A stretch of DNA of 64,000 nt from Anaerolineae bacterium (GTDB taxonomy: Bacteria > Chloroflexota > Anaerolineae > SpSt-313): the NCBI GenBank assembly GCA_034428955.1, contig DAOUGZ010000024.1, positions 5,804-69,803 of the forward strand, in the 5' to 3' direction. Position 1 is the stretch's first letter. Each line of letters opens with the position of its first letter. The notes below the pieces were generated by a model. The model was given only the letters and a program-made list of their open reading frames with translations. It searched no databases and had not been told where the DNA came from. Shown here piece by piece: positions 26,462 to 54,766 of this stretch. A program made the translations under genes and the position numbers.

Positions 26462-26513
26462 ATGAAGCGGTCCAGCTATTCTTGGAGGGGATCAAGACGT
26501 GAAGGAAACCGGC

Positions 26514-35709: not shown

Positions 35710-35730
35710 TATCGACTCCAGGTTGCTCGA

Positions 35731-35749
35731 CCTTGCGCAAGCTCCGAGA
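35731..35749 (+). promoter_or_regulatory. Conserved motif, copy C (CCTTGCGCAAGCTCCGAGA; palindrome CTTGCGCAAG at 35732-35741), 23-32 nt upstream of the divergently read permease start.
   Basis: Flank gctcgacc matches the gctcaacc / gctcagcc flanks of the other copies. Confidence 0.55.
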
Positions 35750-35848
35750 CTCGCCGGCCTACACGGAAAGCGGTTTCACCGCCAAGGCTGCCAAGTGACG
35801 CAAAGGAAACCTGCATAGAGTTGCGCACCCGTCGGGTGGCCGCCTATA

Positions 35849-35910: not shown

Positions 35911-36309
35911 TCAAAAGATGAACTGCAGCGCCAAACTCACCAGGAGGACGCCGGCTTGGATGGCCGTGACCTTGAGCACGCGCCGGTAAAAGAGCCCCTG
36001 GCGCATCCCGGCCCGGTAATAGTACTCAAAGAACACAGAGAGTGCAACTCCGGCACAGGCTAGAACGAGCAGCATGCCCCGATCGATGGCGCCGATAGTC
36101 CAGCCATAGTCGCTGCGCCCAACCACTAGCCCCTGCAAGCGCTCGACCGTCACCTGGCGAAAGGCCCACCACTCCATAAACTCTTGCAGGGCAGCGCGAG
36201 CGAACAGAACGTCGAGCAGGAGCAGCGCCGTAGACCCTAACCAGGAGACGACGTACAGCACCGTCTCCCACCAGCGAACCGGCCTTTGCTCGATACTATC
36301 CAAGAACAC
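35911..36309 (-). CDS. Small 4-TM membrane protein (hypothetical), last gene of the opp-type operon (14-nt overlap with the oppF-like gene).
   Basis: Hydrophobic profile and overlap with the upstream gene. Confidence 0.5.
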
Positions 36310-37375
36310 CTCGCAACTGCAGATCGCGGGCCAGGTGGCAGCTCACAAAATGCCCGGGGCTGACCTCCTCCAGCTTGGGTTCCTCCTTGGCGCACACGTC
36401 TTTGGCGTAGCGACAGCGCGGATGGAAATAGCACCCCGAAGGCGGGTTGGCGGGGTTGGCCACCTCGCCGGGCAGCTTGATCGGGCGGTCCCTCCGCCGC
36501 GGGTCCGGCTTGGGCACCGCCGCCATCAAGGCCTCGGTGTACGGGTGCTTGGGATAGTTGTACAGGTTCTCGGTGCTCGCCACCTCCACCAGCTTGCCCA
36601 CGTACATCACGGCCACCCGGTCGCTGATATGCTCCACCACGCTCAGATCATGGGCGATAAAGATGTAGGTCAGGCCAAACTGGGCTTGCAGGTCCTCCAG
36701 CAGATTGAGCACCTGCGCTTGAATCGAGACGTCCAGCGCCGAGACCGGCTCGTCGCAGATGATTAGCTCGGGGTTCAGGGCCAGCGCACGGGCGATGCCC
36801 AGGCGCTGACGCTGGCCGCCGCTAAAGGCGTGCGGGTAGCGGCTCATGTACTCGGGGCGCATGCCTACGGTGCGCAGGAGGTCGGCGACGCGGTCTTTTA
36901 GCTCCTGGCCCTGGGCCACCTTGTTGATAATCAGCGGCTCGCCCACAATGCGCTCGACGGTCATGCGCGGGTTCAGCGAGGAGAAGGGGTCCTGGAAGAT
37001 GATCTGCATATTCGGCCGCACCGCTGCCAGCTCCTGGCGTGTCATCTGCTCCAGGTTCACCCAGCCCAGCTTGGGGTCGTTGAAGCGAATCTCCCCGGCT
37101 GTGGGCGGCATGAGCCGCAGGATGGTGCGCCCGGCTGTGGTCTTGCCGCAGCCGCTCTCGCCCACCAGGCCCAGGGTCTCGCCGCGACGCACGAACAGGT
37201 CCAGGCCGTCAACCGCCCGCACTGTGCCGGTGACCCGCCGCAGCAGACCCGTCTGCACGGGAAAGTGCTTCTTCAGCCCCTTGACATCCAGAAGCAGGTC
37301 CCCTTGCCCCTGGCCCGAGATAAGCCCATCGCGCGCAAGTCCCGTGGGGCTGGGCTTGGCATCCACATTCATCAC
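36296..37375 (-). CDS. oppF: Oligopeptide/dipeptide ABC-transporter ATP-binding protein (OppF/DppF-like).
   Basis: Walker [10 protein letters not shown]; signature LSGGQRQR; C-terminal oligopeptide-type extension. Confidence 0.85.
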
Positions 37376-38481
37376 TCTTCCTCCCCCGCTTCCGAGTGCA
37401 AGAAGCAGCGCACAGTGTGCCTCTTACCCAGATCCGTCTCCGCCGGCACCCGCACATCGCAGACCCCCGCCATGAACGCGTTGCAGCGCGGGTGGAAGGG
37501 GCAGCCCTTGATGCTCGCGTACGGGTCCGGCACCACGCCCCGGATCGGCTGCAGCCGGGCCTTGGTGCGGCTGCCGACGTGGGGGATCGAGTTGAGCAGG
37601 GCCTTGGTGTAGGGATGCTGCGGGTCGTAAAAGAGGTCCTCCACCGACGCATATTCGACGATCCGCCCCAGGTACATCACGGCCACCGTGTCGCACATCT
37701 GGGCCACCACCCCCAGGTTGTGGGTGATGAAGACGATGGTCATGCCCATCTCGGCCTGCAACTCGCGCATCAGGTCCAGAATCTGGGCCTCGGTCGTCAC
37801 GTCCAGCGCCGTCGTCGGCTCGTCCGCAAAGAGCACCGACGGCGCGCACGAAAGCCCCATGGCGATCATGGCGCGCTGACGCATGCCCCCCGAGAGTTCG
37901 TGCGGGTAGCGCCGCACGACGTTGCTGGGGTTGGGCATGCCGACACGATCCAGGATGTCTATCGCGCGCTCTTCGGCTTCCTGCTTGCTGCAATGCTGGT
38001 GGAGCAGGATGGCCTCCATGATCTGGTCGCCGACGGTGTACGAGGGGTTCAGCGAGGTCATCGGCTCCTGAAAGATCATGGCCAGCTCGGCGCCGCGGAT
38101 GCTGCGAATGACCGGGCCATGGGGGTCCAGGTCCGTGAGGTTCACATCCTCGGTGATCGTGCGGCTCGCGTTCCGCTCCCGCGTGCGGTGGAGGTGGATC
38201 TCGCCCTTGACGATGCGGCCCGGATGCGGCACGAGGCGCATGATCGACAGGGCGGTGACGCTCTTGCCGCAGCCGCTTTCCCCCACCACACCCATCACCT
38301 TGCCGGAGGGCACGTCAAAGCTCACGCCGTTCAGCGCCCGCGATACGCCCAGATCGGTGTAAAAGTAGGTGTGCAGGTTCCTCACCCGCAGGATGGCGCC
38401 GGACTCCGCCACGGCTGATCCCTTTTGCTCGCTCATCGCGTATCCGCCTCCCATCCTAGATCGAGTAGGGATCAACGGCAT
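37372..38481 (-). CDS. oppD: Oligopeptide/dipeptide ABC-transporter ATP-binding protein (OppD/DppD-like).
   Basis: Walker A GESGCGKS; LSGGMRQR; 4-nt overlap with oppF. Confidence 0.85.
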
Positions 38482-39601
38482 CGCGCAAGCCGTCGCCCAA
38501 GAAGCTGTAGAAAAGGACAGTCAGAATGACTGCGACACCGGGGATCATCAACCAGGGATGCTGGAGCACCACCGGCACCTGCTGAGCATCTCTGAGCAGG
38601 GCGCCCCAACTGACCAGGGGCGGCAGGATGCCCAGGCCGAGGAAGCTCAGCGAGGTCTCACCGAGGATCATGTTCGGGATGGCCAGCGCCGCCACCACGA
38701 TGATGTGGCTGGCTGCGTTGGGCAGCATGTGGATGAAAATGACGCGCGCATCCGAGGCCCCCGCCGCCAACGCCGCCTGCACAAAGTCCGCCTGCCGGTA
38801 GGCCATGACCTTGGCCCGCAGTTGCCGCGCCAGGCCCGTCCAGCCCACCAGCGAGAGGATGACGGTAATCAGAAAGTAGCGGTGCAACCCCGTAAAGCTC
38901 TGCGTGATGGGCGGCAAAGCCGCCGCCAGCGCGGCCCACAGGGGCACGGTGGGGAAGGCCATGATGATTTCGATGATGCGTTGCATCACGTCGTCGGTCA
39001 TGCCGCCATAGTAGCCGGACATGGTGCCCATGATCGACCCCAGGATGATGCCCAGAGCCACGCCGAGCAGGCCGATGGTCATCGACACCTGGCCGCCCAT
39101 CAGGATGCGCGCCAGCATATCGCGCCCGAGGGAATCAGCCCCCAGCAGGTAGAGCCGCTGGTCGCCCTCCAGGCCGAACAGGTGGACGTCGGACTTGATG
39201 AACCCGAACAAGGTGTAGGGGTCGCCGCGCACAAGGAACTTGATGGGGATCTTTTTGGTATAGTCGACCTGAAAGACGAATTTAAATTTCTCCTCGTCGA
39301 GGACTGTCGACATCTGATAGGTGTATGGGCGCAGGCTGAACCGTCCGCCCGGCCCGATGAAGGTGATGGGGCTGGGTCCACCATAGACATAATCGTGATT
39401 CTGCAACTGATAGTCGTTGGGCGCCAGGAAAGGACCAAGGAAAACGAGCACGTACATGACAAGCAAGCCGATCAGGCCGGTCATGGCCAGCCGATTGCGA
39501 CCAAAGCGCAACCGCATCAGTTTCCATTGGGACATCTGCCCCACGTCGCTGATCGGCTCGGCTACCCCATGCGCTTGCGGCAATGCGGTCTCTTGAGCCA
39601 T
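38456..39601 (-). CDS. oppC: Peptide ABC-transporter permease (OppC/DppC-like).
   Basis: TM topology; extended N-terminus typical of OppC. Confidence 0.85.
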   Translation of the reverse strand: MAQETALPQAHGVAEPISDVGQMSQWKLMRLRFGRNRLAMTGLIGLLVMYVLVFLGPFLAPNDYQLQNHDYVYGGPSPITFIGPGGRFSLRPYTYQMSTVLDEEKFKFVFQVDYTKKIPIKFLVRGDPYTLFGFIKSDVHLFGLEGDQRLYLLGADSLGRDMLARILMGGQVSMTIGLLGVALGIILGSIMGTMSGYYGGMTDDVMQRIIEIIMAFPTVPLWAALAAALPPITQSFTGLHRYFLITVILSLVGWTGLARQLRAKVMAYRQADFVQAALAAGASDARVIFIHMLPNAASHIIVVAALAIPNMILGETSLSFLGLGILPPLVSWGALLRDAQQVPVVLQHPWLMIPGVAVILTVLFYSFLGDGLRDAVDPYSI

Positions 39602-39628: not shown

Positions 39629-40612
39629 CTACTCGAACCGGATCCGCGGGTCCAGCCAGGCCAGCATGATATCCGCCAACAGATTGCCGACCAGCAAGAG
39701 CACCGCCAGGAACATCAGGAAGGTTGCCCCCAGATACATGTCCTGCTGCTGCAAAGCCCGGAAATAGAGGGGCCCGGTTGTCGGCATGTTCAGCACGATA
39801 GCCACAACAGTCTCGCCCGAGATGATACCCGGCAGGCTCATCCCCAGGACCATGACCAGGGGGTGCAGGGCATTACGCACGGCGTGCTTCCAGATCACAG
39901 TGCGCTCAGTCAACCCCTTGGCCCGCGCCGTCTGCACGTACTGCATGTTCAGCACATCCAGCAGGTTGCCGCGCATCACCCGGCTGAGCCAGGCCGTGCT
40001 GCTGGCGCCGATGACCACGATCGGGAGCCAGAGATGCTTGAGGAGGTCCACGAGCTTGCCCAGGCTCCAGGGTGCGTTCTGATACTCTTGGGAGAACAGG
40101 CCACCGACCTCCTGGCCGAGCACCCGCTGGGCAAAGACCATCAGGACCAGAGCCAACAGGAAGGCGGGGACCGAGAGGCCGATGAACTGCAGGACGGTGA
40201 TGGCATAGTCGGGGATGGTGTAGCGATGAGTCGCCGAGTAGACACCCACAAAGATGGAGACTACCCAACTGAACAACATGGTGAACAGCGAGATCATCAC
40301 CGTATAGCCCAATCTGCCCCAAAGCAGATTGGAGACCGGCAAGTGGTACATGAAGGATTCGCCAAAGTCGCCCCGCACAAAGCCGGAGAACCACTTCCAG
40401 AACTTGATGTATACAGGATCGTGCACCCCGTAGCGGATCTCGAGCGCCTTGATCTGCTCCGGCGCCAGGTTCCCACCCACCTGACGCAGCCGGTTGAGCT
40501 CAAACTCGAGATAGGAGCCTGGCGGCAGTTCGATGATGATAAAGCCGATGATGGCGACAAAGGCCAGCGTGACGAGCATATAGCCCGATCGCCGCATGAT
40601 GTATCTGAGCAT
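39629..40612 (-). CDS. oppB: Peptide ABC-transporter permease (OppB/DppB-like).
   Basis: ORF 39629..40705; likely start ATG 40612 (MLRYIMRRSGYML..). Confidence 0.8.
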   Translation of the reverse strand: MLRYIMRRSGYMLVTLAFVAIIGFIIIELPPGSYLEFELNRLRQVGGNLAPEQIKALEIRYGVHDPVYIKFWKWFSGFVRGDFGESFMYHLPVSNLLWGRLGYTVMISLFTMLFSWVVSIFVGVYSATHRYTIPDYAITVLQFIGLSVPAFLLALVLMVFAQRVLGQEVGGLFSQEYQNAPWSLGKLVDLLKHLWLPIVVIGASSTAWLSRVMRGNLLDVLNMQYVQTARAKGLTERTVIWKHAVRNALHPLVMVLGMSLPGIISGETVVAIVLNMPTTGPLYFRALQQQDMYLGATFLMFLAVLLLVGNLLADIMLAWLDPRIRFE

Positions 40613-40796
40613 GGCACCCCCCAGAGCGTGTCTTGAAACCCAGCCGAAGCAACCTCCAAAACCGGCTGCAGCCTGGGCGCCGGCAACCTGCCGGCGCAGG
40701 GTCAAGGAAGCTGCTTGGCTATGAAGACAACCGGTAGCCTGCCCGAGAGAGCATGCTCTCTCGGGCAGGCCGTCGGTACTGCAACACCACTTGCCC

Positions 40797-42929
40797 TTAC
40801 GCCTTGTAGGCGTAGGTCTCTGGGTTGGTCACCGCCGGGTAGGGGATGATCCAGGGGTTGACGAACCCACCCAGCCGGAGCTGTTCCTTCGTCGGCACGT
40901 TCATCAGCTTTTTGCTGACAAAGATGATGCGCGGATAGTTCGCCACGCTGCCGATGAAGAAGGGGCCCTGGTCGATGTGGATGTTGATCATATCCCACAC
41001 ATAGTGGTGGCGCTTGAGATCGTCGACCTCGACCATGGCCTTGAGGTAGATCTCGGTCAGGTCCTTCACCGGGCCGTCAGTGTAGCCGGCCTCGGTGGAG
41101 GCCCAGCGCGGCGGCTGGCGGTCCCATGGGCTCTTGTCCAGCTCCGAGTCCTCCTGCGGGGTGCCGACCAGCATCAGGCGGTTGCCGCACAGCGGCGCCC
41201 AGCGTTCGGGCTCGTTCGGGACCATCCAGGAGGGGTAGAGCAGATGGTCGGGGCCGTCGCCGACCTCCCAGTTGGTGTGGATGTCCCCCTGGCCGCCCCT
41301 CCACATGGGGCCGAACTCGGCGGGTGGGACCTGGTTGATAATGATGCTCAGACCGATGTCTTTCCAGTTCTTCTCAACGATCTGAAGGACGTTCATGCAC
41401 TCGGCGCCGGCATCGGCCGGGACGTCGATGCTGATATCGAGCTTGCTGCCGTCCGGATACTCGCGGATCCCGTCGCCGTCGGCATCGACGACGCCAATCT
41501 CGTCGAGAATGGCCATGGCCTTCTCAGGATTGTACTCCATATAGGCCGACCGGGCCTTCTCGTACAGAGCCTGGGCCTCTTCGTTAAAGTTGTACTCGAT
41601 GGCCTTGGGGCTCATGGTGCCGGTGGTCGGGATGCCGGTGTTGTAGTAGACAATCCTCTGGATCGTCGGCCGGTCCATGGCGTAGGACATGGCCTGCTTG
41701 AACTTGGGATTGCGATAGAGCTCGCGCTTCTTGTCGTCGGGATGGTCATAGTTCCAGAAGTACATCATGCCCGTGCCGGAGCCCGAGTCCCACAGGCGAA
41801 CTTCATAATTGCCCGTGTCCTCGCTCTCCTTGAGGGTCGAGATGTCCGCCAGGGTGGCGCCATGAAAGTGCACAAAGTCGATGCCGCCCTGCATGATGGT
41901 GAGCTTTTGGACCTCGGCATCCTGGACCTGGGTCTCGTCGATGCCGTCGATGTACGGCAACTGGTTGCCCTCGGTATCCACGGCATAGTAGTAGGGGTTG
42001 CGCTCCCACGTTCTGCTCTCGGCTGCCGTGTACACGGTGCAGATCCAGGGATTCAGCGAGGGGCAGTCCGGATTCTGCCGGAAGAGGATCTTTTGGTCGT
42101 GCTCCTCAAAGTCCGTGACAGCGGGGTTGTACTTGGGGTGGAACTGCTGCATATAGTGCTTGGGCGCGATCCAGCGCGGGCCGATGGCGCCGTTGACCCA
42201 CATCGCCAGGCGCTTGGCCGTGAGCGGCGTGGGCTCGATGTACTTGAGGGTGAGGGTATAGTCGTCGACCTTGATGAACTCGACCAGCTTGCCGCCGGCG
42301 GAGCCAAAGTCGGGCGGTTGGTCGGAATGGTCCTGGTTGAGGACGAGATCCTCCCACCAATACAGGACGTCATCCACCGTGCAGGGCTCGCCGTCGGACC
42401 ACTTGAGCCCCTCGCGGATGTGCACCGTCCACTCGGTGTTATCGTCGTTGGACTCCCACCAGTCGCACATGCCGGGGGCGATGCCCATGCCGTCATCGAT
42501 CCAGCGCAGGGGCGAGTGCCCATACTGGCTCTCTTCCCAGGCGTTGCCCAAGTCACCAGTGAAGGTGCGGATGCGGCCGCCATACTGGCCGATGCCGTCC
42601 ACCGGCGAAAGGACGAGGGGGACCTTGGGCAAGCGATCCGCCAGCGGGGGCAGATCACCCGCCGCGACCCTTTCAGCCAGAGCGGGCGCTTCCTTGAGCG
42701 ATGTCTCGGGTGCCACCGTCGGCACGGGGGTAGCAGTCGCCGCCTGGGTCGGGATGGGGGTCGGCTTGTCCGCCGGGGCGGTGGTAGCCGCAGGCACCGG
42801 CGTGGCCTCCGCAGGCGGAACTTCCGGCTGCGGCTGGCCGCCACAGGCGGTCAACGCCACGCCCACAGCGGCCATAGCCGAACCGAACAGGAAATCACGA
42901 CGGCTAACCTTCATCGTTCTCTTTGACAT
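40797..42929 (-). CDS. oppA: Peptide/nickel ABC-transporter substrate-binding lipoprotein (family 5), Tat signal.
   Basis: ATG 42929 after AGGAGGA. MSKRTMKVSRRDFLFGSAMAAVGVALTAC. ~710 aa with Pro/Thr-rich linker. Confidence 0.85.
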   Translation of the reverse strand: MSKRTMKVSRRDFLFGSAMAAVGVALTACGGQPQPEVPPAEATPVPAATTAPADKPTPIPTQAATATPVPTVAPETSLKEAPALAERVAAGDLPPLADRLPKVPLVLSPVDGIGQYGGRIRTFTGDLGNAWEESQYGHSPLRWIDDGMGIAPGMCDWWESNDDNTEWTVHIREGLKWSDGEPCTVDDVLYWWEDLVLNQDHSDQPPDFGSAGGKLVEFIKVDDYTLTLKYIEPTPLTAKRLAMWVNGAIGPRWIAPKHYMQQFHPKYNPAVTDFEEHDQKILFRQNPDCPSLNPWICTVYTAAESRTWERNPYYYAVDTEGNQLPYIDGIDETQVQDAEVQKLTIMQGGIDFVHFHGATLADISTLKESEDTGNYEVRLWDSGSGTGMMYFWNYDHPDDKKRELYRNPKFKQAMSYAMDRPTIQRIVYYNTGIPTTGTMSPKAIEYNFNEEAQALYEKARSAYMEYNPEKAMAILDEIGVVDADGDGIREYPDGSKLDISIDVPADAGAECMNVLQIVEKNWKDIGLSIIINQVPPAEFGPMWRGGQGDIHTNWEVGDGPDHLLYPSWMVPNEPERWAPLCGNRLMLVGTPQEDSELDKSPWDRQPPRWASTEAGYTDGPVKDLTEIYLKAMVEVDDLKRHHYVWDMINIHIDQGPFFIGSVANYPRIIFVSKKLMNVPTKEQLRLGGFVNPWIIPYPAVTNPETYAYKA

Positions 42930-42956
42930 CTGTGTCCTCCTTGAAAAGATGCCCAC

Positions 42957-43888
42957 CGGTACGGATGATCATTACGCGCCGGCATTTCGCTTCGCGCCCC
43001 TCTATCACCTCCCTCCATCGCAAGCTGCCTACAGCTACTCGGTGCCCGCAGGCCTGGGCCAAAGACCGGTAAAGTTGGTCATCGCGGCGACCCACCTGCA
43101 GCCATCCTACACGGCGGCCCTAGGTGGCTGTCCCCATCCCGTTGGAGCATAGATTGCCCAAGCTGGCTGTGCGCCACTGGAGCGCCTGCCGCGTTGGCGA
43201 TCGGCGCACCGGTTGATAAGAGCGGCCACCTGAGCGGCTATTCCAACACCCCACGAACCGGCGGATGATCCGGCCGCCGAAGCCAGAGCGCAAGACGGCG
43301 CAATGCGCCTTTCTGGGGCGTTGTCGACGCGCGGCGCACGAGGATCAACCCAGCAGCCATAGCCGGGCTCCTTGTGCACGCTCCCATTTGGCTAAAACAG
43401 TCAGACCAAGAACAACGGTTGTGGGAACTCGAGCTACAAAACAGAACCTTGGGATAGAACGAAAGGAAGCAAATCACCCCGAGTTAACAGGCGCCCGTCG
43501 AGGTTGCGGGCAGCCCGAGCGGATCCGGCACATTGGAGCAAGACGTCATCATCAAGGGCCAACGACAGATCACAAACTTGCGGCAAATGACCTTGAGGGC
43601 GAGAAACAGAAGAGAAACACGAGGAAAAAACAAGACAAGGGCGGGTTCCCGGCGCACAAATGGCCCTGCGCAGCACCGGCCTGTAGGAGTCAACAGCCTG
43701 AGGTAGGAGATATGCTTGGAAGCCGGTTGCCAGAGTGAGGTTCCAGATCACCATTCCACCCATGACTTTCAGGTCCCAATCCGCAGCCTTTGCGGATGCC
43801 CTGCCCGCTAGACGACCTTGAGGCATTTCCAGTATAGCATGCAATGCAGAGGCTGTCAACAGTGTGGGTGGGCCACAAAGATTGCATC
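42957..43888. other. ~930-bp non-coding region with locally reduced GC and A/G-rich tracts; no ORF with genome-typical GC3.
   Basis: All ORFs here have mixed third-position composition and low-complexity translations. No tRNA, tmRNA or RNase P signatures found by eye. Confidence 0.5.
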
Positions 43889-44737
43889 TTACTCCTTGCG
43901 CATGATCAGCACATTCTGATGGATGATATTGGGCACATAGGCATAGGGGTAACCGTAGGGGCGGATGCGCGTGCCGGTGGCGTACCAGATGTGCACGCCT
44001 TTGAGGACAAAGCCCACTTCCTTGTAGCGCTCGGCGAGGTGGTAGGCGGTGGGGATGTACTCGCCGCCCTGATAGGCATCGCGCACGATCAACACCAGGT
44101 AGCGCCGCGGCCGCAGCACGCGCAGGAGCTTGACCCCGATGCGTTGCATGGCCGCGAAAAAAGCCGCAAAGCTGTCGAGGTTGCTCAGATCGGCCGGATC
44201 ATCGCTATACTCGACATAGCCGCTACGACGATTGGGCCGGTTGTAACCGGCGTTCGCCGCCGCGCCGGACATGGTCTGCCGCAGACGGATCGAGTAAGGG
44301 GGATCGGTGGCGATGAGGTCCACGCTGTCATCGGCCAGAGCATCGAGGAGCGCCTCGCAGTCGCCGCAGAGCACCGGATGCGGCCGGATGCCCTCTCGCT
44401 CGCAGACCTGGCGGTAGATGGCAATCGAGCGGGGGTTGATCTCCATCCCCAGCGAACGGCGGCCCGCCAGGTGGGCGCCGAGCAGCGTCCCGCCCGCCCC
44501 GGCAAAGGGGTCCAGCACCAGGCCATCGCGCTTGGTAAAGAACTCGATGATACTCTGCATGAGCTGCGGCGGCTTGTTGCCGCCTTGGCGCCGCCGCAGG
44601 TCGTGGCCCAGGATGGAGGGGTAAGACGTCCTGAGTACGCTCTTGGTAAAGTACATCCACTCCGCGCCGCTCAGTTCATTCAACTGGTTCTGGGGATGCA
44701 CCCCACCATTGGTCTCTCCGTCGCCGCGTTCGGCCAT
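43889..44737 (-). CDS. DNA methyltransferase, likely N6-adenine (FxGxG motif I followed ~60 aa later by DPPY motif IV); no restriction endonuclease gene adjacent.
   Basis: DPFAGAGGT and DPPY motifs. ATG 44737 after AAGGAG; the longer TTG-initiated ORF to 44854 lies inside the conserved upstream element. Confidence 0.8.
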   Translation of the reverse strand: MAERGDGETNGGVHPQNQLNELSGAEWMYFTKSVLRTSYPSILGHDLRRRQGGNKPPQLMQSIIEFFTKRDGLVLDPFAGAGGTLLGAHLAGRRSLGMEINPRSIAIYRQVCEREGIRPHPVLCGDCEALLDALADDSVDLIATDPPYSIRLRQTMSGAAANAGYNRPNRRSGYVEYSDDPADLSNLDSFAAFFAAMQRIGVKLLRVLRPRRYLVLIVRDAYQGGEYIPTAYHLAERYKEVGFVLKGVHIWYATGTRIRPYGYPYAYVPNIIHQNVLIMRKE

Positions 44738-44744
44738 CCATACT

Positions 44745-44856
44745 CCTTCGTTATCAAATCCGAAACTTTGCGAAAGCCTCAGGTCGACTCCCAACCCGAC
44801 ACGGCGTGGCTGAGCAAGTTGCCCCCGGGCCGGCGAGTCTTGGAGCTTTTGCAAGG
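44745..44856 (-). promoter_or_regulatory. Conserved upstream element, copy B (core CCTTGCAAAAGCTCCAAGA at 44838-44856 on the minus strand; ~75% identical to copy A over ~90 nt).
   Basis: Fills the intergenic space between the SPFH-gene stop and the methyltransferase ATG. Confidence 0.6.
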
Positions 44857-44867
44857 CTGAGCGCGTG

Positions 44868-45872
44868 TTACTCCACTGGCGTCGGGCTCTGCGCCTGCAG
44901 CCCGTTCAGGTCCAGGATGAACGGGTTATCCGAGGGCAGCAGGATCGTGCTGATGTTGGGTGCCAGCTTTTCGATGTAACGATAGGTCAGCAGGTTCGGG
45001 TTCTGGCTCAGGGCATCGCTAACCAGGCGCAGGGCTTCCGCCTCGCCCTCGGCCTTGGTAATCGCCGACTGCTTTACACCCTCCGCCTCGACCTTTTTGC
45101 GCTCGGCCTCCTGCTGCTCCTTCTGAAGCACGAACTCCATCTGCTCCGCCTGCTGCTGGGCAATCTGTTTCTGCTCAATCGACTTGGCATACTCGTCCGT
45201 AAAGTTGACGTTGCGGATATCAAAAGAGAGCAACACAAAGCCCGCTTCCTCAAAGCGCTCGCGCAGCGCCGTCTCGATCTCGGTCTGAATCTCTTTGCGC
45301 TTGGGGCCATAGACGTCGGTAACCGTGTTCTGCGAGACGTACAGGCGAACAATCGAGCGGATAGCCGGGCGAATGAGCACCGTATCGTACGTCTGCCGAT
45401 ACTTGTCGTGGACGTAGGCAGCCTTGCGCGGGTCGATGGCATAGCGCGTCGAGGAGTCGATGCCGACCTGCAGCCCCTCTTCGGTCGGCGACCAGAGCGA
45501 GTCATCACGGGCAACCTGGGCCTCATCAGCAATGCCGCTCATCGTGTACACCTGCTCCATAGTGCTGTAGCGGTACACCGTATTGATATAGGGCACAATC
45601 ACGTGCATCCCAGGCATGAGCGGCTCGGGCTGGGTGCCGCTGAACGAGTTGAACACCACGCCAACCTCGCCGGCGTCGATGACCACGATGCTTGCTCCCA
45701 ACGTGCTGCAGGTGACGGCGATGGCCAGCAGGATCAACGCTCCGGGAATCGAGATCGTCTTCTTTTTGCCCAAAGGCTGCTGCACACTGCGCACTACTCC
45801 CCAGATCAAATAACCGCCCAGGGCAAGCCAAAAGAGAATGGCCACTCCACTTAGCACGCTCGCGAATGCCAT
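44868..45872 (-). CDS. SPFH/band-7 (prohibitin/HflC-like) membrane protein.
   Basis: N-terminal TM; SPFH domain; C-terminal coiled-coil (..QQQAEQMEFVLQKEQQEAERKK..). RBS GGAGGA. Confidence 0.85.
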   Translation of the reverse strand: MAFASVLSGVAILFWLALGGYLIWGVVRSVQQPLGKKKTISIPGALILLAIAVTCSTLGASIVVIDAGEVGVVFNSFSGTQPEPLMPGMHVIVPYINTVYRYSTMEQVYTMSGIADEAQVARDDSLWSPTEEGLQVGIDSSTRYAIDPRKAAYVHDKYRQTYDTVLIRPAIRSIVRLYVSQNTVTDVYGPKRKEIQTEIETALRERFEEAGFVLLSFDIRNVNFTDEYAKSIEQKQIAQQQAEQMEFVLQKEQQEAERKKVEAEGVKQSAITKAEGEAEALRLVSDALSQNPNLLTYRYIEKLAPNISTILLPSDNPFILDLNGLQAQSPTPVE

Positions 45873-46199
45873 CGAGATCCTCCTTGCATGAACCAGTGGA
45901 AACGGGTGGGAAGGAGTGCCGGAGCGCAGAGCAATGGCGCGTCCACGGCCCGGCCCAGGCGCGACACTGGGCGCAACTCCCTATAAAGTATAGCACATAA
46001 CACCCTTTCTTGCATGACCTCTGCATCTTTGACAGCCTCCGGCACCTGGGCTACCATTACCCGCGGGCGGCCGCGCTCCCCTCCCGCAGGTTCCGCGACT
46101 CACGCGGAATGGCGAGCCGAGCTTCCCAGGCAGGCGTCTCAGCCGGCAAGCGCTGCTGACCTGCGCGAGGGGGACGCATCGAGTAGAAGTGAGGAGACC

Positions 46200-46358
46200 G
46201 TGAGGGAACCCGGCGTTCGGCCCTGGTTCTGGATTACCATCATTCTGGCAATCGTTCTGTTGGCGTTGATCATCCGAGGCTACTGGGAATGGGCCATAGT
46301 TGCGCTGCTTGCAGCAATGGTCCTCGCCCGCCTGCCCGTTATTCGTTGGCCATCCTGA
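46200..46358 (+). CDS. Possible small (52-aa) single/double-TM membrane protein.
   Basis: GTG 46200 after GAGGAG (short spacer). Hydrophobic C-terminal half. Weak evidence. Confidence 0.3.
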   Translation: MREPGVRPWFWITIILAIVLLALIIRGYWEWAIVALLAAMVLARLPVIRWPS

Positions 46359-46368
46359 GGAGTAACCC

Positions 46369-47322
46369 ATGCCCGACCTGATCACCTTTGGCGAGACGAT
46401 GGTCCTCTTTAGCCCGCTCTCCGAGGGACCCCTGCAGTACGTCTACCACTTTGAGAAACGCTTTGCGGGCGCAGAGAGCAACGTGGCCATCGCCACCGTG
46501 CGCCTGGGCCACTCGGCCGGCTGGATCAGCCGCCTGGGTGACGATGATTTCGGCCGCTACATCCTCTGTGGCCTGCGCGGCGAGGGGGTCGATACGAGCC
46601 AGGTGCGCCTCAGCGCCGCGCAGCCCACCGGCGTTTTCTTTCGCTCGCGCGGCTCCGTCGGCGGCGGGAGCGAAACCTTTTACTACCGGCACAACTCGGC
46701 GGCCTCGCAACTGGCCCCAGAGGACCTGGACCCGGCCTACTTTCAGGGGGCGCGCGTGTTGCACCTCACGGGCATTACGCCGGCCCTGAGCGCCGACTGC
46801 CGCGCCGCCACCTATCGGGCCATCGAGTTGGCCCGTCAGGCCGGGCTTTTGATCTCCTTCGACCCCAACCTCCGCCTCAAGCTGTGGCCAGTCGACGAGG
46901 CCCGGCGCGTGCTCTGCGACCTGGCCTCGCGCGTCGATATCGTCCTGCCCGGGCGCAGCGAGTGCGCCATCCTCTACGGCACCGAAGACGAGCGCAAAGC
47001 CGCCGGGGCCATCCTGGCCGCCGGCGCGCGCCTGGTCGTGGTCAAACTGGGGACGGAAGGGGCCTATATCCGCACAGCCGGCGAGGAACTGCGCGTGCCG
47101 GCTGTGCCCGTGGGCCAGGTCGTCGATCCCATCGGCGCCGGCGACGGCTTTGCCGCCGGCTTTCTGGTAGGTCAGATGGAAGGCCGCTCGCTGGCCGAGT
47201 CCGCCCGCCTCGCCGTCACCATCGGTGCCTTTGCCACCGCCACGGCGGGCGATGTGGAGGGCTACCCCAGCCGCGCGCGCGTAGAGGCCTACTGGGCCGG
47301 CCGCGCCCCCCGCGAGCGCTAG
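46369..47322 (+). CDS. kdgK: PfkB-family sugar kinase (2-dehydro-3-deoxygluconokinase-like).
   Basis: N-terminal GETMVLF.. and C-terminal DPIGAGDGFAAG PfkB signature. Confidence 0.8.
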   Translation: MPDLITFGETMVLFSPLSEGPLQYVYHFEKRFAGAESNVAIATVRLGHSAGWISRLGDDDFGRYILCGLRGEGVDTSQVRLSAAQPTGVFFRSRGSVGGGSETFYYRHNSAASQLAPEDLDPAYFQGARVLHLTGITPALSADCRAATYRAIELARQAGLLISFDPNLRLKLWPVDEARRVLCDLASRVDIVLPGRSECAILYGTEDERKAAGAILAAGARLVVVKLGTEGAYIRTAGEELRVPAVPVGQVVDPIGAGDGFAAGFLVGQMEGRSLAESARLAVTIGAFATATAGDVEGYPSRARVEAYWAGRAPRER

Positions 47323-47362
47323 TGCGCGCATCCCAAACTCGCCGGAAACACAAAGACCGTAT

Positions 47363-47401
47363 ACCAAGTGTTCATGGGTGCGGCGCTCATGAACACTTGG
47401 T
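47363..47401. repeat. Perfect 14-bp inverted repeat (accaagtgttcatg / catgaacacttggt) with 11-nt loop.
   Basis: Seen directly in the sequence, 40 nt after the kinase stop. Confidence 0.7.
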
Positions 47402-47509
47402 GATATGTGCCCGTTCACTCAGCAACGATAGCGCTGATTACCGGCTTGAGGCTCCGGCCTTTCGCCGCTATAATTCGCCGCAGATCACAGGAATGGAGGA
47501 TGCCCCGTA

Positions 47510-48733
47510 ATGGCCGAGCCCCGTACCTATCGCCCCTGGCCCCCGGCGTTGATGACCTCCGAGCCGGGTTCCTTTGCCGAGGCGACCATCGTCCGCCGCA
47601 AACCGCAGATCATCCGCGACGTGCTGTGCGACAACGACTATCCCCCCGAGATCGCCCACGCCTTGCGTGCATTGGCGGTCGAGATCGAGAGCCGCGAAAT
47701 CCAGCCGCTGGTCGAGCCGGCGCCGGACCTGGATGAGTGGCAGGCGCAGTGGTGCCCCTACGCCGGGCTCACCTGGCGGCAGGTGCCCTGGTATTTTGCC
47801 GAGGCATTCTTTTATCGGCGCCTGCTGGAGGCGGTGCGCTACTTCCAGCCCGGCCTCTGGCAGGGGCACGACCCCTTTGCCCTTCAGAAGCGACGCCAGA
47901 TCGATGGACCCGCCGGGGCGCTCGAACAGGCGGCCGAGCTGCTCCCCGAGCTGCCGCCGGACCCCGTCGAGGCAGCCCATGCGCTGATCTATGCCTCGCT
48001 TTGGGGCAATCGCGTGGACCTCTCCAACAGCCAGATCCTGGCCGGGGCGGCGCTGCAGGCAGGCCACCCGCACGATGTGCTGATCGACGACAGCCCAGAG
48101 TTGCTGGCCTACCTGACCGGCCAGGGGCCGCACGCCCGCGTCGACTTTATCTGCGACAACGCCGGCCCCGAGGCCGCCTTTGACCTGCTGCTGACCGATG
48201 CCATCCTAGAGCAGGGATGGGCCCGCCGGGTGCGCATGCACCTCAAGCCCTATCCCTTCTTCGTCTCCGACGCCATGCCCAGGGATGTACGCGAACTCAT
48301 CGTCAGGCTGCAGGGAGCGCCGGAGTCGCTGACCCGCGCCGCCGGAGACCGCCTGGCCAGCCGCCTGCAGGCGGGAGCTCTGGAGCTGGTGGACCACCCC
48401 TTCTGGGGCAGTGCCCGCCACTTTGTCGAGATGCCGAGTGAACTGCGCGCCGAGCTGGGGCAGGCCGGTCTCGTGCTCATCAAGGGCGACGCCAACTACC
48501 GGCGCCTCCTCGGAGACCGCCACTGGCCATCTACAGAGCGGCTGGAGGAGATTGCCGGCTACTTCCCCGTGCCCTTTGCCGTGCTGCGCACCCTGAAGGC
48601 GGAGATCATGGTCGGGTTGGAGGAGGGGCAGGCCGAACTCTTGGCGAAGGAAGACGCAGACTGGCTCATCAATGGCCGGCGCGGGATCATCCAATTTGTC
48701 GTGCCCGCCGGGGAAGAGCCGCTGTTCAAATAA
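47510..48733 (+). CDS. DUF89/ARMT1-like damage-control phosphatase family protein.
   Basis: C-terminal ..LIKGDANYRRLLGDR.. signature and overall length (~407 aa). Confidence 0.7.
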   Translation: MAEPRTYRPWPPALMTSEPGSFAEATIVRRKPQIIRDVLCDNDYPPEIAHALRALAVEIESREIQPLVEPAPDLDEWQAQWCPYAGLTWRQVPWYFAEAFFYRRLLEAVRYFQPGLWQGHDPFALQKRRQIDGPAGALEQAAELLPELPPDPVEAAHALIYASLWGNRVDLSNSQILAGAALQAGHPHDVLIDDSPELLAYLTGQGPHARVDFICDNAGPEAAFDLLLTDAILEQGWARRVRMHLKPYPFFVSDAMPRDVRELIVRLQGAPESLTRAAGDRLASRLQAGALELVDHPFWGSARHFVEMPSELRAELGQAGLVLIKGDANYRRLLGDRHWPSTERLEEIAGYFPVPFAVLRTLKAEIMVGLEEGQAELLAKEDADWLINGRRGIIQFVVPAGEEPLFK

Positions 48734-48840
48734 CCGCCTCAGGGGGCGCATAAACTGCAAACGGCCAAAGCCGTCACTACGTGGGAGGGAGTTGCCTCAG
48801 TCCATGTAGTGACCGCTTCAGCGGTTCCCGCCCCAGGGGT

Positions 48841-49218
48841 CTACCTGGTGGGTGGAGCATCTCCCTCTTCCGCTGAGAGGAGCCGGCCGACGACCTCTTC
48901 GAGGGTATCCAGGTCAAAGGGCTTGGGCAAGAGTAGCGTGCCGGGGCAGTCACCCGCAGACAGCCTGCCGGCCGTCATGAGGATGACAGGAATTGATGCC
49001 GTATCGGGGGAGGCGTGGAGCTGCTGGCAGAGTTCCAGGCCGTTCATGATCGGCATCATGATATCGGTCAGCACCAGATCCGGGTGCTCGCGGCGGGTTA
49101 CATCCAGGGCCGCGCGGCCGTCATAGGCACGAAGCACGCGATAGCCGATGTCTTCCAGCAAAGAGCCGACAAACTCGACCACCGCTTCCTCGTCATCGAC
49201 CACGAGAACAGTCTTCAC
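48841..49218 (-). CDS. Single-domain response regulator (CheY-like receiver).
   Basis: VLVVDDE.. D-box; ..LVLTDIMMP..; conserved Lys (LPKP). Confidence 0.8.
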   Translation of the reverse strand: MKTVLVVDDEEAVVEFVGSLLEDIGYRVLRAYDGRAALDVTRREHPDLVLTDIMMPIMNGLELCQQLHASPDTASIPVILMTAGRLSAGDCPGTLLLPKPFDLDTLEEVVGRLLSAEEGDAPPTR

Positions 49219-49590
49219 GACGGCTCCTTACACAGGCCTCAGGCGAGCCCAGGTGCGCCACCACGCTTCAGGAGTGCCGGGGTCACACAGGTCCGAGCAG
49301 ATCCTCCGGCGCCGCAAGCGGCGCGTCTTGACTGTCCGCATCTCTGTGCAGCACGGCTGGGCATGGCCCGTCGGCCCGACCGTGCTCGGACGCCACAGCC
49401 CGGCCTGCACCGGCAATGCACTGCATCTGGCCAATCCTAGCAAATCCTAGGCCAGCGCGACGAGGCCGATCAACACCAGTTCCGTCTGTCCACATCGGAG
49501 TCGCTCAATAGCGCGCAACTCCCTCATTCGAGGCGCCGTCGCACGTCTGAGTCGGCCGGTGATGCATGGTGTGGCTCTTGTAAAGCCAAG

Positions 49591-49623
49591 AAGGCGGGGG
49601 AAGGAAAACTCCCCCCGCCTTCC
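49591..49623 (-). terminator. Intrinsic terminator-like hairpin downstream of dnaK (ggcggggg..ccccccgcc).
   Basis: aaggcgggggaaggaaaactccccccgccttcc, 15 nt after the dnaK stop. Confidence 0.65.
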
Positions 49624-49637
49624 TCAGGCAGATGTCA

Positions 49638-51545
<1,908 letters not shown>

Positions 51546-51688
51546 GGGTTGAGCCTCCTAGATAATGAAACGTCAAACGTCATGCGTCAAACGTGATATA
51601 CGCTGCGTACTGCGTGATGCGTGCTGCGTAAGGTAGCCTGCAGCGGCAAACGCCGCAACGAGAGAGGTTACGCAGTACATAGTACGCA

Positions 51689-52300
51689 TCACGTATCAGC
51701 CCCGGCTTGCTCTTCTTCAGTTCCTCCGGTTGCCTCGTCCGTTACGGTGGGCGTCACAGCGACCTTGACCATCGCCGGCCGCAGGATGCGCCCGTGATAC
51801 TCGTAGCCACACTGCAGGTCGGCGACGACCTGCCCATCGGGGTAGGCGGTCGTCTCCTCGCGCAGCACCGCGTGGTGCCGTTCGGGGTCGAACATCTGGC
51901 CGGTCGCCTCAAAGCGCTTGAGCCCCGCTTGCTCGAGGGTTTGCTCGAACTTGCGTCGGATGAGCAGGATGCCCTCAACCCAGCTCAACTGGCTGAGGTC
52001 GGCCGGCAGGGTGGCCATCGCCCGGTCCAGATCGTCGAGGACGGGCAGCAACTGAGTCAGTAGCAGGCTGTTGGCGAAACGGGTAGACTCCTCGCGCTCG
52101 CGCTCGGTGCGCTTGCGATAGTTGGAGAACTCGGCCGCCGTACGGCGCCATTGATCCAGATACTCTTCTGCCTGACCCTTGGCCTTTTCCAACTCCGCTG
52201 CCAGGTCCTCCTGGGCCGGCTGCACGGACTCGGCCTCCGGCGCTCCATCCGGGGTCGTGGGCTGTGCGGACTCTGTGCCCCTCTCGTTCTCATCAACCAT
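51689..52300 (-). CDS. grpE: Nucleotide-exchange factor GrpE.
   Basis: GrpE C-terminal domain signature; position between hrcA and dnaK. Confidence 0.9.
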   Translation of the reverse strand: MVDENERGTESAQPTTPDGAPEAESVQPAQEDLAAELEKAKGQAEEYLDQWRRTAAEFSNYRKRTEREREESTRFANSLLLTQLLPVLDDLDRAMATLPADLSQLSWVEGILLIRRKFEQTLEQAGLKRFEATGQMFDPERHHAVLREETTAYPDGQVVADLQCGYEYHGRILRPAMVKVAVTPTVTDEATGGTEEEQAGADT

Positions 52301-52340
52301 GATTGGCGTTCCACCTCCATCACAGCGAGCTGCAATCTCA

Positions 52341-53375
52341 TCAATACCCGTGCATCTGCTCGACCAGGTTGCTCAGCAGGCGCGCCACAAAACGCACTGC
52401 CGAGATGGCCCGGCCGTAGGGCATGCGCGTGGGGCCAAGAACCCCCACCACGCCGTTAGCCTCACCCCGCACCCCATAGGGTGACAAGACAAGGCTATAG
52501 TCTTCCATATCTCCCCAGCGCCCCTCTCCGCCGATGATGACCTGCACGCCGTTCGCCCACAGAACGTCGGCGATGATAGCCTCCAGCAGGCTGCGCCGTT
52601 CCAGCAGCTCCACCACTTGGCGGAACTTGTCCACCTCGGCAAACTCGGGCTGGCGCAACACCTGCAGCAGCCCGTCGCGGTGGATATCACTCTCCATCCG
52701 CCGGTCCATCTGCTGCATCTGGCTGACGATACATTCCAGGACGTGCCGCTCCAGCCCCGAAAGGTTGGCGTGGGCCAGGGGGCCGGTGCGAATCTCGCTG
52801 GTGTTGGCCGTGCCCAGGAGCGCGTTCAGGCGGTTCGTCGCCTGAGTCAGCTCCTCTTCGCTCGTCGCCGCCGGCAGCGGCATCACCTGTTGGCGGATGC
52901 TGCCGTCATGGCAGATGAGGATGAGCAAAGCAGTGACCTCGCTGAGCGAGATCAGTTCGACATGCCGGAAACGAGTCTGAGGGGCGCGAGGCGCCGTGAC
53001 TAGAGAGGCGCTGCTCGCCGCCTGCGCCAGCACAGCCGCCGCCAACTTCATCCACTGCCCCAGGTCCAACTGAACCTGGTGGAACTGGTGGCTGATCATG
53101 CGCTGCTCACTGGGGGGCAACTCGGTATCCCGCATCAGCCGGTGCACAAAGTAGCGATACCCCTTGTCGGTCGGCATGCGGCCGGCCGAGGCATGGGTCT
53201 GCATGAGGTATCCCTCGCGCTCCAGGAAGGCAAACTCGGAGCGCACCGTGGCCGGGCTGACGTCCAGGCCGTAGCGTTGCACAATGGCCTTGGAGCCAAC
53301 CGGCACGGCCAGCGCAATATACTCACGCACGACGATACCGAGGATTTCCTCTTGCCGGCGGGTCAGTTGCTCCAT
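52341..53375 (-). CDS. hrcA: Heat-inducible transcription repressor HrcA.
   Basis: N-terminal winged-helix (..LTRRQEEILGIVVREY..VGSKAI..); length 344 aa; CIRCE operator upstream. Confidence 0.9.
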   Translation of the reverse strand: MEQLTRRQEEILGIVVREYIALAVPVGSKAIVQRYGLDVSPATVRSEFAFLEREGYLMQTHASAGRMPTDKGYRYFVHRLMRDTELPPSEQRMISHQFHQVQLDLGQWMKLAAAVLAQAASSASLVTAPRAPQTRFRHVELISLSEVTALLILICHDGSIRQQVMPLPAATSEEELTQATNRLNALLGTANTSEIRTGPLAHANLSGLERHVLECIVSQMQQMDRRMESDIHRDGLLQVLRQPEFAEVDKFRQVVELLERRSLLEAIIADVLWANGVQVIIGGEGRWGDMEDYSLVLSPYGVRGEANGVVGVLGPTRMPYGRAISAVRFVARLLSNLVEQMHGY

Positions 53376-53458
53376 ATCGGAGTCCCCTCTAGTATCGGAC
53401 AGATTGGGCGCTCAGCCCAGCCCCTGCATAGGGCAGGCTGCCAGATGCAGAAGCAGGC

Positions 53459-53485
53459 TTAGCACTCGCCAGTCGCGAGTGCTAG
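53459..53485. promoter_or_regulatory. CIRCE operator (TTAGCACTC-N9-GAGTGCTAG).
   Basis: Near-perfect match to the CIRCE consensus. Lies immediately downstream of a TTGACA - 16 - TATCAT promoter (minus strand, 53488-53515) driving hrcA-grpE-dnaK. Confidence 0.85.
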
Positions 53486-53487
53486 TA

Positions 53488-53515
53488 TGATAGCACGAAG
53501 AGCGCCAACTGTCAA
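53488..53515 (-). promoter_or_regulatory. hrcA promoter (-35 TTGACA at 53510-53515, -10 TATCAT at 53488-53493, minus strand).
   Basis: Seen directly in the sequence; canonical spacing, abutting CIRCE. Confidence 0.55.
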
Positions 53516-53575
53516 GGGGTATGGCGCAAACATTAGCAGGTATATCGGAGGAAACTTGATAAGAGCATTATCAAG

Positions 53576-54766
53576 TTAGGAAGGCAGCAAGCGCCGAGGC
53601 AGGACCCCATTGCCCTGTACGTCGGCGGCATCGTGAAAGGCCGCGAGTTCACTCAGGGCTGTGGAGAATGCCGACTGGAAGGCCGCATCCTCGTACAGCG
53701 ACTCGTCGGCCAGGTGGATGCCCTGTACGATCAAGCGCCGGCGCGACCAGCTCATCTGCGGCTCAATGCGCCCCACCAGCGTATCGCCATAGAGGATGGC
53801 CAGCGCGTGGGCCGAGAACTGCCGGCGCAGCGCGGCCGCGCGCGATGCAGGCTGGCGCCAATCGTAGGCAAAAAAGTCCCGAGCGCGCTGGCTGTCCCAA
53901 ACGACCGGGTCGAGGGGCGAGAGAAAGAAAACGTGCGGCGCAGACGGCCCAGGCTGCGCGCCAAGCGGCAGCCAATCAGCCGGCAACAGGTAGGTCTCGA
54001 AAGGGTCCTCGACCCGCACCTGGATCACCTTGCCCTCCGCCAAGAGCTCGTCCATCACCCGGTTCTTTTCGCGTTTCATCGCCGCCAGGCCCAGGCGCGC
54101 GCGCGAGCCGATCCCATTCAGGACCTGGCTCCAACTGGTTCGGGTCATCGGCGCCAGGATGCACAGAGCGCGCCAGGCCAGTGTGTGCAGGCGCTCGTGG
54201 AGCGGCAGGGAATGGCGCTGACAATCCGGCAGAACGCGCTCCGCCAGGTCATAGACCTCCTGGCCGATCTCGCGATCATCGACCAGGATAGCTCCGCTGC
54301 TGTGGAGATCGTGGATGGCGCGCCCGATGGCCCGCCGGTCGGTCTTGCCCTGGCCGCGCAGAAAGAACTGTAGGTCGCGCAGAGTAGCCGCGCCCTCGTC
54401 CTCGAGGTAACCCAGCACCAGGTCCCCCAGAGACCCCGGGCGTGATGCAGCCTGGATGCGCTCGGGGTCATAGATCAGCACATAGTCCTCAGCCGGCAGC
54501 ACCCCAGGCAGATGCAGGCAATGCTCGAACAGGCGCCCGCGCTCGTAGAGAGCGGTTTCCAGGCCGCCGATGCGGTAGGCCTGGACGCGGCCAAAGAGGG
54601 CGATATCGTGGCTGGGCGCCAGGGCGTGGGTGCGCAGCTCCAGGGGCAGGAACCCCTGGCGGCTGACCCAGGTGACGGCGCCATCCATCCCTCTCAGGCG
54701 CCGCTCTCCCAAGAGTCCTTGCCGGCGCAGCAACAGGCGCCTCAGCTCTTTGCGCGTGGTGAGCAT
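53576..54766 (-). CDS. Winged-helix DNA-binding protein of the AlkZ/YcaQ-like (HTH_42/DUF1006) family; putative DNA glycosylase.
   Basis: N-terminal MLTTRKELRRLLLRRQGLLG.. typical of the family. ORF extends to 54856; ATG 54766 preferred. Confidence 0.6.
   Translation of the reverse strand: MLTTRKELRRLLLRRQGLLGERRLRGMDGAVTWVSRQGFLPLELRTHALAPSHDIALFGRVQAYRIGGLETALYERGRLFEHCLHLPGVLPAEDYVLIYDPERIQAASRPGSLGDLVLGYLEDEGAATLRDLQFFLRGQGKTDRRAIGRAIHDLHSSGAILVDDREIGQEVYDLAERVLPDCQRHSLPLHERLHTLAWRALCILAPMTRTSWSQVLNGIGSRARLGLAAMKREKNRVMDELLAEGKVIQVRVEDPFETYLLPADWLPLGAQPGPSAPHVFFLSPLDPVVWDSQRARDFFAYDWRQPASRAAALRRQFSAHALAILYGDTLVGRIEPQMSWSRRRLIVQGIHLADESLYEDAAFQSAFSTALSELAAFHDAADVQGNGVLPRRLLPS

Follow-up and report, generated by a model that had tools for sequence, protein, structure and literature searches.

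A solitary permuted methyltransferase gene beside the probable long leader of an Opp-type operon in an Anaerolineae genome

The locus described here lies in a 64-kb stretch of DNA from an Anaerolineae (Chloroflexota) genome, the whole of which is called the window below. It consists of a solitary gene for a predicted DNA methyltransferase, a gene-free stretch directly 3' of it, and a five-gene ATP-binding cassette (ABC) transporter operon of the Opp type that encodes a family-5 solute-binding protein (SBP), two permeases and two ATPases; a gene for an SPFH/Band 7 protein precedes the methyltransferase, and all of the elements of the locus are on the − strand (Table 1). A solitary methyltransferase followed by a large empty region is easily taken for a decayed restriction system, and a first-pass annotation, made from the sequence alone, had proposed such a module or a foreign insertion. 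Here that reading would be mistaken, since the gene-free DNA most likely forms part of the adjoining operon. The methyltransferase and the stretch are two unrelated things side by side, and the stretch, judged by its sequence and by comparison with orthologous loci, is most likely the downstream operon's promoter together with its untranslated leader of unusual length.

The binding protein was taken to start at ATG 42929, which stands behind AAGGAGG, yields a 710-amino-acid (aa) product identical to the NCBI-called protein and aligns with the starts of the orthologues. Since this start is the most likely one, the gap measures 959 nucleotides (nt; 42930-43888) and not the 930 bp first reported; it is the longest interval without a gene in the window, the other large gaps left by a crude gene caller being found to hold genes. 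The accompanying claim that the gap lacks a coding open reading frame (ORF) was upheld. No periodicity of GC content at the third codon position (GC3) was detected in the stretch, and the codon-usage log-odds of every ORF within it were negative (−0.09 to −0.64), compared to 0.17-0.57 for real genes and a mean of −0.45 for off-frame ORFs. Two candidates were considered individually and rejected, these being a leaderless or 109-141-aa ORF at 43434-43859 (codon usage −0.31, no homologues) and a 43-aa ORF with an AAGGAG site (codon usage −0.17, no homologues). The stretch had also been described as less GC-rich, which is correct relative to coding DNA (0.592 versus 0.653 for the window) but does not hold against the 19 other intergenic regions, whose mean is 0.594 (standard deviation 0.05). 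The A/G-rich tract noted in the same place is real and is pyrimidine-rich on the sense strand, with a purity reached by 0 of 300 shuffled sequences.

A predicted σ70-type promoter opens the stretch, 30 nt past the methyltransferase stop codon and 930 nt 5' of the binding-protein ATG. Sites matching at least 11 of the 12 consensus positions had a background frequency of 0.018 per kb per strand, as counted over 2.2 Mb of related DNA. The window holds four such sites, all intergenic and at least three of them upstream of a same-strand gene, and for this reason the E. coli-type σ70 consensus appears to be predictive in this genome. The leader was compared across 49 loci encoding relatives of the binding protein (loci are designated by L numbers throughout), in none of which was a methyltransferase or SPFH gene found near the binding-protein gene. 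Orthologous loci carry gene-free upstream stretches of 0.5-1.2 kb. In L085, which encodes a 78%-identical orthologue, the gene-free upstream region is 874 nt long and contains TTGACA-17-TATACT at −684; promoters matching at 12 of 12 positions were located upstream of other orthologues at −699 (L091), −671 (L093) and −643 (L097), and a consensus promoter (11/12 or 12/12) at −355 in L108. The distal leaders of the window and L085 resemble each other significantly at a single place, the promoter, where the similarity includes bases outside the hexamers. As the gene 5' of the L085 leader encodes a LacI-family regulator, the leader travels with the operon and not with the methyltransferase. Both leaders contain a pyrimidine-rich tract (~3569-3604 in L085), placed 255 nt from the promoter −35 element in L085 and 229 nt in the window, and are otherwise dissimilar; pairing of the tract with Shine-Dalgarno (SD) regions was no better than in composition-matched shuffles. 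Transcription from the promoter at 43859 would pass through the whole stretch and produce a leader of ~890 nt.

Table 1. Features of the locus, with the other predicted promoters of the window
Feature	Position	Strand	Remarks
SPFH/Band 7 gene	44868-45872	−	PF01145, E = 3e-33; context 5' of methyltransferase
Copy B of palindromic repeat, decayed	44763-44862	−	Within SPFH-methyltransferase spacer; 73% identity to 15013-15112
Solitary predicted DNA methyltransferase gene, 282 aa	43889 (stop)-44737 (ATG)	−	N6_N4 family, PF01555
Predicted σ70-type promoter, TTGACA-17-TATACT, extended −10 TG	43831-43859	−	11/12 positions
Inferred long 5' leader of Opp-type operon	42930-43830	−	Predicted start of transcription near 43824; non-coding
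Pyrimidine-rich tract (A/G-rich on + strand)	43594-43645	−	36-nt window 89% pyrimidine
Upstream SD-like motif GGAGGGAGGTGA, core GGAGGTG at −83	43005-43016	−	Candidate STAB-SD-type element; no ORF after it
Binding-protein ribosome-binding site AAGGAGGA and ATG	42927-42943	−	NCBI-called product; orthologue starts align
Family-5 (Opp/Dpp-type) solute-binding protein, operon gene 1	40797-42929	−	PF00496, E = 9e-59
Operon permeases (two)	39629-40705, 38456-39601	−	BPD_transp_1/OppC_N domains
Operon ATPases (two)	37372-38520, 36296-37375	−	ABC_tran/oligo_HPY domains
Other σ70 matches of at least 11/12 (three)	53515-53487, 14998-14970, 26434-26463	−, −, +	Two 5' of same-strand genes, including hrcA

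The proximal part of the leader carries a second SD-like motif well upstream of the binding-protein gene's ribosome-binding site (RBS). In the window this motif, GGAGGTGA, is at −83, which is also its modal position. In all 19 leaders that were long enough, that of the window among them, the core GGAGGTG begins between −79 and −103, compared to three occurrences in the 28 kb of remaining upstream sequence. The form AAAGGAGGTG is the complement of the 16S rRNA 3' end. A search for the double arrangement GGAGGTG-N50-95-GGAGR-N4-10-ATG returned 29 occurrences in 2.17 Mb, 25 of which are in loci fetched via the binding protein or at the SBP start of the window, extending to homologues of 29-38% identity; the remaining four are distant arrangements near an approximate start. 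Across the leaders, neither a start codon nor a frame following the motif is conserved. The motif usually has a hairpin in front of it whose sequence varies; no structure was detectable in the region, and the 16 proximal leaders that were folded were no more stable than shuffled sequences.

In cry3Aa of Bacillus thuringiensis, according to PMC12970973 (citing Agaisse & Lereclus 1994, 1996), transcription begins at −558, the transcript is processed, and a stabilising SD sequence (STAB-SD) at −125 protects the mature mRNA. The leaders compared here likewise place an SD-like sequence complementary to the 16S rRNA 3' end well 5' of the true RBS, and to judge from the sequence no ORF is initiated at this upstream site. 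By analogy, the motif may be a STAB-SD-type stabiliser: a long primary transcript would be processed as in cry3Aa, a 30S subunit bound at 43016-43005 would cover the mature mRNA at its 5' end against RNase J-type 5'->3' decay, and this protection would yield a stable, highly expressed binding-protein message. That an orthologue group of Chloroflexota family-5 binding-protein operons uses 0.6-0.9 kb leaders with a position-fixed AAAGGAGGTG (~−83) as a ribosome-dependent stabiliser of the STAB-SD type is put forward tentatively, as a possibility and not as the expected outcome. If true, it would be the first STAB-SD-type element defined by comparative conservation, and one outside the Firmicutes and Actinobacteria; a further, undescribed level of regulation might reside in the distal leader and its pyrimidine tract.

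The methyltransferase had been reported with FxGxG followed by DPPY in 282 aa from the ATG; this was confirmed, and the gene is intact. The product is identical to the NCBI-called protein and is matched by PF01555 at 69 bits (cut-off 26.7) in two stretches. Motif I (DPFAGAGGT) occupies residues 76-84, and DPPY, at residues 145-148, is C-terminal to it. Alignment of 36 family members gave 59 invariant columns, motif I and DPPY among them, all of which are kept by the protein of the window. A homologue search with the methyltransferase returned 2,217 matches, and when one genome per species was scanned, relatives at 47-67% identity turned up in at least 534 species, distributed over Chloroflexota classes, Planctomycetota, Clostridia, Armatimonadota, Actinomycetes and some archaea. 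Branching in the methyltransferase tree agrees with taxonomy, and codon usage is native (log-odds 0.47, with 0.50 for the SPFH gene), as is GC3. When aligned to the β-class enzyme TTHA0409 (2zie), query residues 55-113 correspond to 220-278, and residues 117-149 and 176-222 to 19-101; in place of the β-class order (IV -> target-recognition region -> X/I), X/I comes first and is followed by IV-VIII. On this alignment the methyltransferase is circularly permuted relative to β-class enzymes. The modified target is probably N6-adenine, given that the catalytic motif is DPPY. In ten Ktedonobacteria loci (L016, L025, L028, L036, L039, L043, L044, L049, L051 and L072) a ~660-aa DUF6909 protein consistently follows the family methyltransferase (in L039, the only one scanned, PF21850 matched at E = 5e-250), and an uncharacterised ~440-aa protein precedes the methyltransferase, an arrangement that may be lineage synteny or a functional link.

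When the neighbours in 84 methyltransferase loci were clustered, a single partner stood out as functionally informative, a restriction endonuclease of the AlwI family (PF09491). It was detected by profile directly 3' of the methyltransferase and on the same strand in 11 of the 84 loci, in two clades, an adjacency that indirectly supports the predicted action of the enzyme on DNA. The endonuclease gene is intact in five loci (L020, L022, L038, L046 and L056), interrupted by a contig end in two (L014 and L078) and decayed in four, by frameshift in L021 (5933-7884), by loss of all but the first 64 aa in L029 (3662-3853), and by internal deletions in L034 (5825-7007) and L054 (1476-2220). Because of this linkage and the decayed copies, the methyltransferase family is considered to be restriction-modification derived, with endonuclease loss in progress. 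The methyltransferase of the window clusters with those of L001-L004 (80-83% identity) and then with those of L005-L008 and L030 (Anaerolineae), and no trace of an endonuclease was found in any of these nine other members of its clade. The downstream gene differs in each close relative; it is a convergent apurinic/apyrimidinic endonuclease gene with zero gap in L001, a β-lactamase fragment in L002, and a 55-aa ORF followed by an acetyltransferase gene in L003. At the window locus no cognate endonuclease gene adjoins the methyltransferase, and the AlwI profile found nothing in the whole 64 kb, so the earlier observation that the enzyme has no such partner stands. On the stretch itself (42930-43888) the profile scored negatively in all six frames and no residual similarity appeared in any of them, the four decayed copies, which it picked up readily, serving as positive controls. 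The family would thus descend from Type II restriction-modification modules with an AlwI-family partner; the Anaerolineae lineage to which this genome belongs would have lost the partner long ago and kept the methyltransferase as a chromosomal gene under purifying selection.

The stretch was also searched for foreign DNA and for known RNAs. A six-frame Pfam search found nothing at E <= 1 except the start of the binding protein, and six-frame fragments of at least 30 aa, concatenated and compared to 5.8 billion proteins, gave nothing at E <= 10. No match was found in phage and plasmid collections, and blastn and tblastx against four close methyltransferase loci and the 49 binding-protein loci detected no similarity. 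Rfam returned nothing at gathering thresholds in the window, with chance-level matches only at E <= 10 in 42700-45000, and no match in 12 orthologous binding-protein loci. A tRNA/tmRNA scan found no tRNA gene, and no integrase or transposase domain was present in the neighbours scanned within ±10 kb. Folding of the stretch showed no extra stability over shuffled sequences, either as a whole (z = +0.86) or in the 226 nt proximal to the promoter (43600-43825; z = +1.96), and a structured RNA or riboswitch is therefore unsupported. The first-pass annotation had offered a degraded endonuclease gene, a phage or integrative remnant and a non-coding RNA locus as explanations of the stretch. None of these found support: the AlwI profile was negative and Pfam and the protein collection silent, phage and plasmid matches were absent and the codon usage of the methyltransferase and SPFH genes native, and for known RNAs Rfam was silent. 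Empty protein and Rfam searches, together with a GC content equal to that of other intergenic DNA, were the outcome under which that annotation had itself been prepared to give up its proposal.

The surroundings of the locus are ordinary chromosome. The DnaK encoded in the window shares 89-90% identity with proteins recorded under 'Anaerolineae bacterium', which points to an uncultured member of the Chloroflexota as the source. Neighbours within ±10 kb that match Pfam are housekeeping genes (hrcA-grpE-dnaK, a response regulator, an ARMT1-like gene, PfkB and an FtsX permease), and three small ORFs in the same range have no Pfam match. A TAT_signal match (PF10518) on the binding protein falls slightly under the Pfam cut-off (21.8 versus 22.7 bits). 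Contigs of relatives selected by DnaK (90-91% identity, L134-L142) retain the order AlkZ-hrcA-grpE-dnaK-response regulator(-ARMT1) found at 44000-55000 of the window; beyond this conserved block NAD synthase or transketolase replaces PfkB-SPFH-methyltransferase-opp, placing a rearrangement breakpoint near 47400. The methyltransferase-opp junction is absent from the syntenic contigs of the 91%-DnaK relatives, and a single-protein scan of genome contigs gave no relative. The region around the methyltransferase and operon is rearranged but native chromosome. The first-pass annotation had correctly placed a same-strand SPFH gene and copy B of a repeated element 5' of the methyltransferase; copy B lies in the 130-nt spacer between the two genes. 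A functional coupling of the SPFH protein with the methyltransferase was rejected because no relatives other than the closest three (L002-L004) retain their adjacency. In L002, an IS200/IS605-type Y1 transposase gene (1354-1689) lies between the SPFH gene and the methyltransferase gene.

The favoured reading as a whole, an old orphan methyltransferase beside the unrelated control region of an operon with a STAB-SD-like long leader, was assigned a probability of roughly 0.6. Several observations weigh against it. The motif in the window reads GGGAGGTGA, not AAAGGAGGTG; the window and its closest orthologue show no conservation of the sequence lying between the promoter and the SD-like motif; and the 930-nt leader exceeds that of every orthologue (640-700 nt). 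The promoter could drive a separate short RNA, or the operon could use an unrecognised proximal promoter. As to the enzyme, some database entries name family members TRM11 or RsmD, and the top matches of a fold search were the Trm11 and TrmN tRNA enzymes (template modelling score ~0.48), so that DNA and RNA methyltransferases are not separated by fold; an AlphaFold model (mean predicted local distance difference test score, pLDDT, 82) matched only generic colinear class-I methyltransferases. The permuted motif order makes the chain colinear with Trm11- and TrmN-type RNA enzymes, and this colinearity accounts for both the mixed database names and the uninformative fold search.

Among the alternatives, a different function for the SD-like motif is unlikely: the motif would then be a translational enhancer, a ribosome standby site, or the binding site of a short upstream ORF that has escaped recognition. 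Its full complementarity to the 16S rRNA 3' end, 70-85 nt 5' of the true binding site in all orthologues, fits these functions as well, and in some leaders an ATG or TTG stands 1-4 nt past the motif. Such codons are not conserved, however, their spacing is too short for initiation and the frames they would open are not maintained, and the distance to the true start is long for a standby site; an enhancer and a stabiliser are inseparable by sequence alone. It is quite unlikely that the promoter at 43859-43831 drives an independent small RNA (sRNA) of ~200 nt that ends at the U/C-rich tract, or that the stretch is an undescribed regulatory leader such as a riboswitch or attenuator. A T-rich pyrimidine tract does lie ~200 nt after the strong predicted promoter, and that of L085 is at a similar distance from its own promoter, but no canonical terminator was found, the folding scores and Rfam results given above offer nothing for such an RNA, and the distal sequence is not conserved between orthologues. 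Terminator-like hairpins with a U-run directly 5' of the SD-like motif in L089 (~2190-2225) and L099 (~170-210) hint at attenuation or read-through control in those lineages.

An eroded cognate endonuclease gene, which would make the locus a decayed restriction-modification module, is a very improbable account of the 0.9 kb. The stretch does occupy the position held by the AlwI endonuclease in related loci, directly downstream on the same strand, decay intermediates are known from four of them, and within 43440-43620 there is a weak periodicity in which GC content at the first codon position exceeds that at the second (GC1 > GC2). This account is nevertheless rejected despite the right position, because the AlwI profile is negative, the clade is without endonuclease and the genes downstream of its methyltransferases vary, some of them gapless; the protein and Pfam searches were equally empty, and the leader features of the stretch are common to binding-protein orthologues that have no methyltransferase nearby. 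Barely credible is a horizontally acquired island or phage/integrative remnant comprising the methyltransferase and the stretch. The synteny break, in which the 91%-DnaK relatives keep hrcA-grpE-dnaK-response regulator-ARMT1 and lack PfkB-SPFH-methyltransferase-opp, could be taken in its favour, as could the IS200/IS605 transposase that adjoins the methyltransferase in L002. None of the signs of foreign or mobile DNA was seen, however: the methyltransferase and SPFH genes are native in codon usage and GC3, the GC content of the stretch is typical of intergenic DNA, tRNA, integrase and transposase genes are absent among the scanned neighbours, there is no phage or plasmid similarity, and the methyltransferase tree tracks taxonomy.

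Repeated sequences were recorded elsewhere in the window. Copies of a genome-specific repeat lie at 15008-15120 (+), 44763-44862 (−), 35725-35759 (+) and 30355-30389 (+), and the 18-mer CCTTGCNNAAGCTNCNAG occurs five times in the window against 0.04 expected. Copy A, in which 55 nt separate two inverted 18-mers, forms a hairpin of ~95 nt (−49.8 kcal/mol, z = −3.45); copy B, 5' of the methyltransferase, is degraded and does not fold as a hairpin. The element was absent from 133 fetched loci of other organisms, and it looks like a palindromic repeat of the repetitive extragenic palindrome (REP) or miniature inverted-repeat transposable element (MITE) type, or an operator-bearing 5' element. Positions 1-138 hold three tandem 46-nt units, the first two 96% identical and the third 63%, in an array truncated by the window edge. 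A 49-nt direct repeat of 90% identity, ending …CAT, is found at 2054-2102 and 56418-56466, 54 kb apart, and may represent either a 5' end common to two − strand genes or a further dispersed element.

The conserved SD-like motif is the most useful by-product of this analysis, and the locus is otherwise largely ordinary. The permuted N6_N4 family is mostly orphan, taxonomically coherent, and paired with AlwI endonucleases in a minority of lineages, in which the copies from intact to decayed form a natural series for studying the origin of orphan methyltransferases. The SD-like motif and the distant consensus promoters provide concrete hypotheses on gene expression in uncultured Chloroflexota.

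Three kinds of known system bear comparison with the methyltransferase. It shares with the β-class N6/N4 enzymes (PF01555; TTHA0409/2zie, CcrM, M.RsrI) the S-adenosylmethionine (AdoMet) region NKPPQLM…DPFAGAGGT, the (D/S)PPY catalytic loop and the segment after DPPY, with significant alignment to 2zie and CcrM; it differs from them in its permuted, X/I-first order, in having no evident variable target-recognition domain and in the unusual conservation of its family. Members of this family in two clades stand directly 5' of the endonuclease gene on the same strand, as in AlwI-family (PF09491) Type IIS systems, whereas the window and its clade are without endonuclease and show no detectable remnant. 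With the solitary methyltransferases Dam and CcrM it has in common a restriction-modification origin, persistence without endonuclease throughout large clades that are taxonomically coherent, native composition and a strongly conserved sequence, although the enzyme of the window belongs to a different, permuted family.

The leader compares most closely with that of cry3Aa as described in the cited account. Both have a distal promoter (at −558 in cry3Aa, −930 in the window and −640 to −700 in the orthologues) and a perfect SD-like sequence ~80-125 nt 5' of the start with no ORF behind it, and high expression is expected in both. They differ in the host, which here is a member of the Chloroflexota (Anaerolineae) and not a Firmicute; in the core of the motif, GGAGGTG here versus GAAAGGAGG in cry3Aa; and in the basis of the leader's proposed role, which here is sequence. 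In contrast to cry3Aa, conservation of the motif described here extends over an entire group of orthologous transporter genes.

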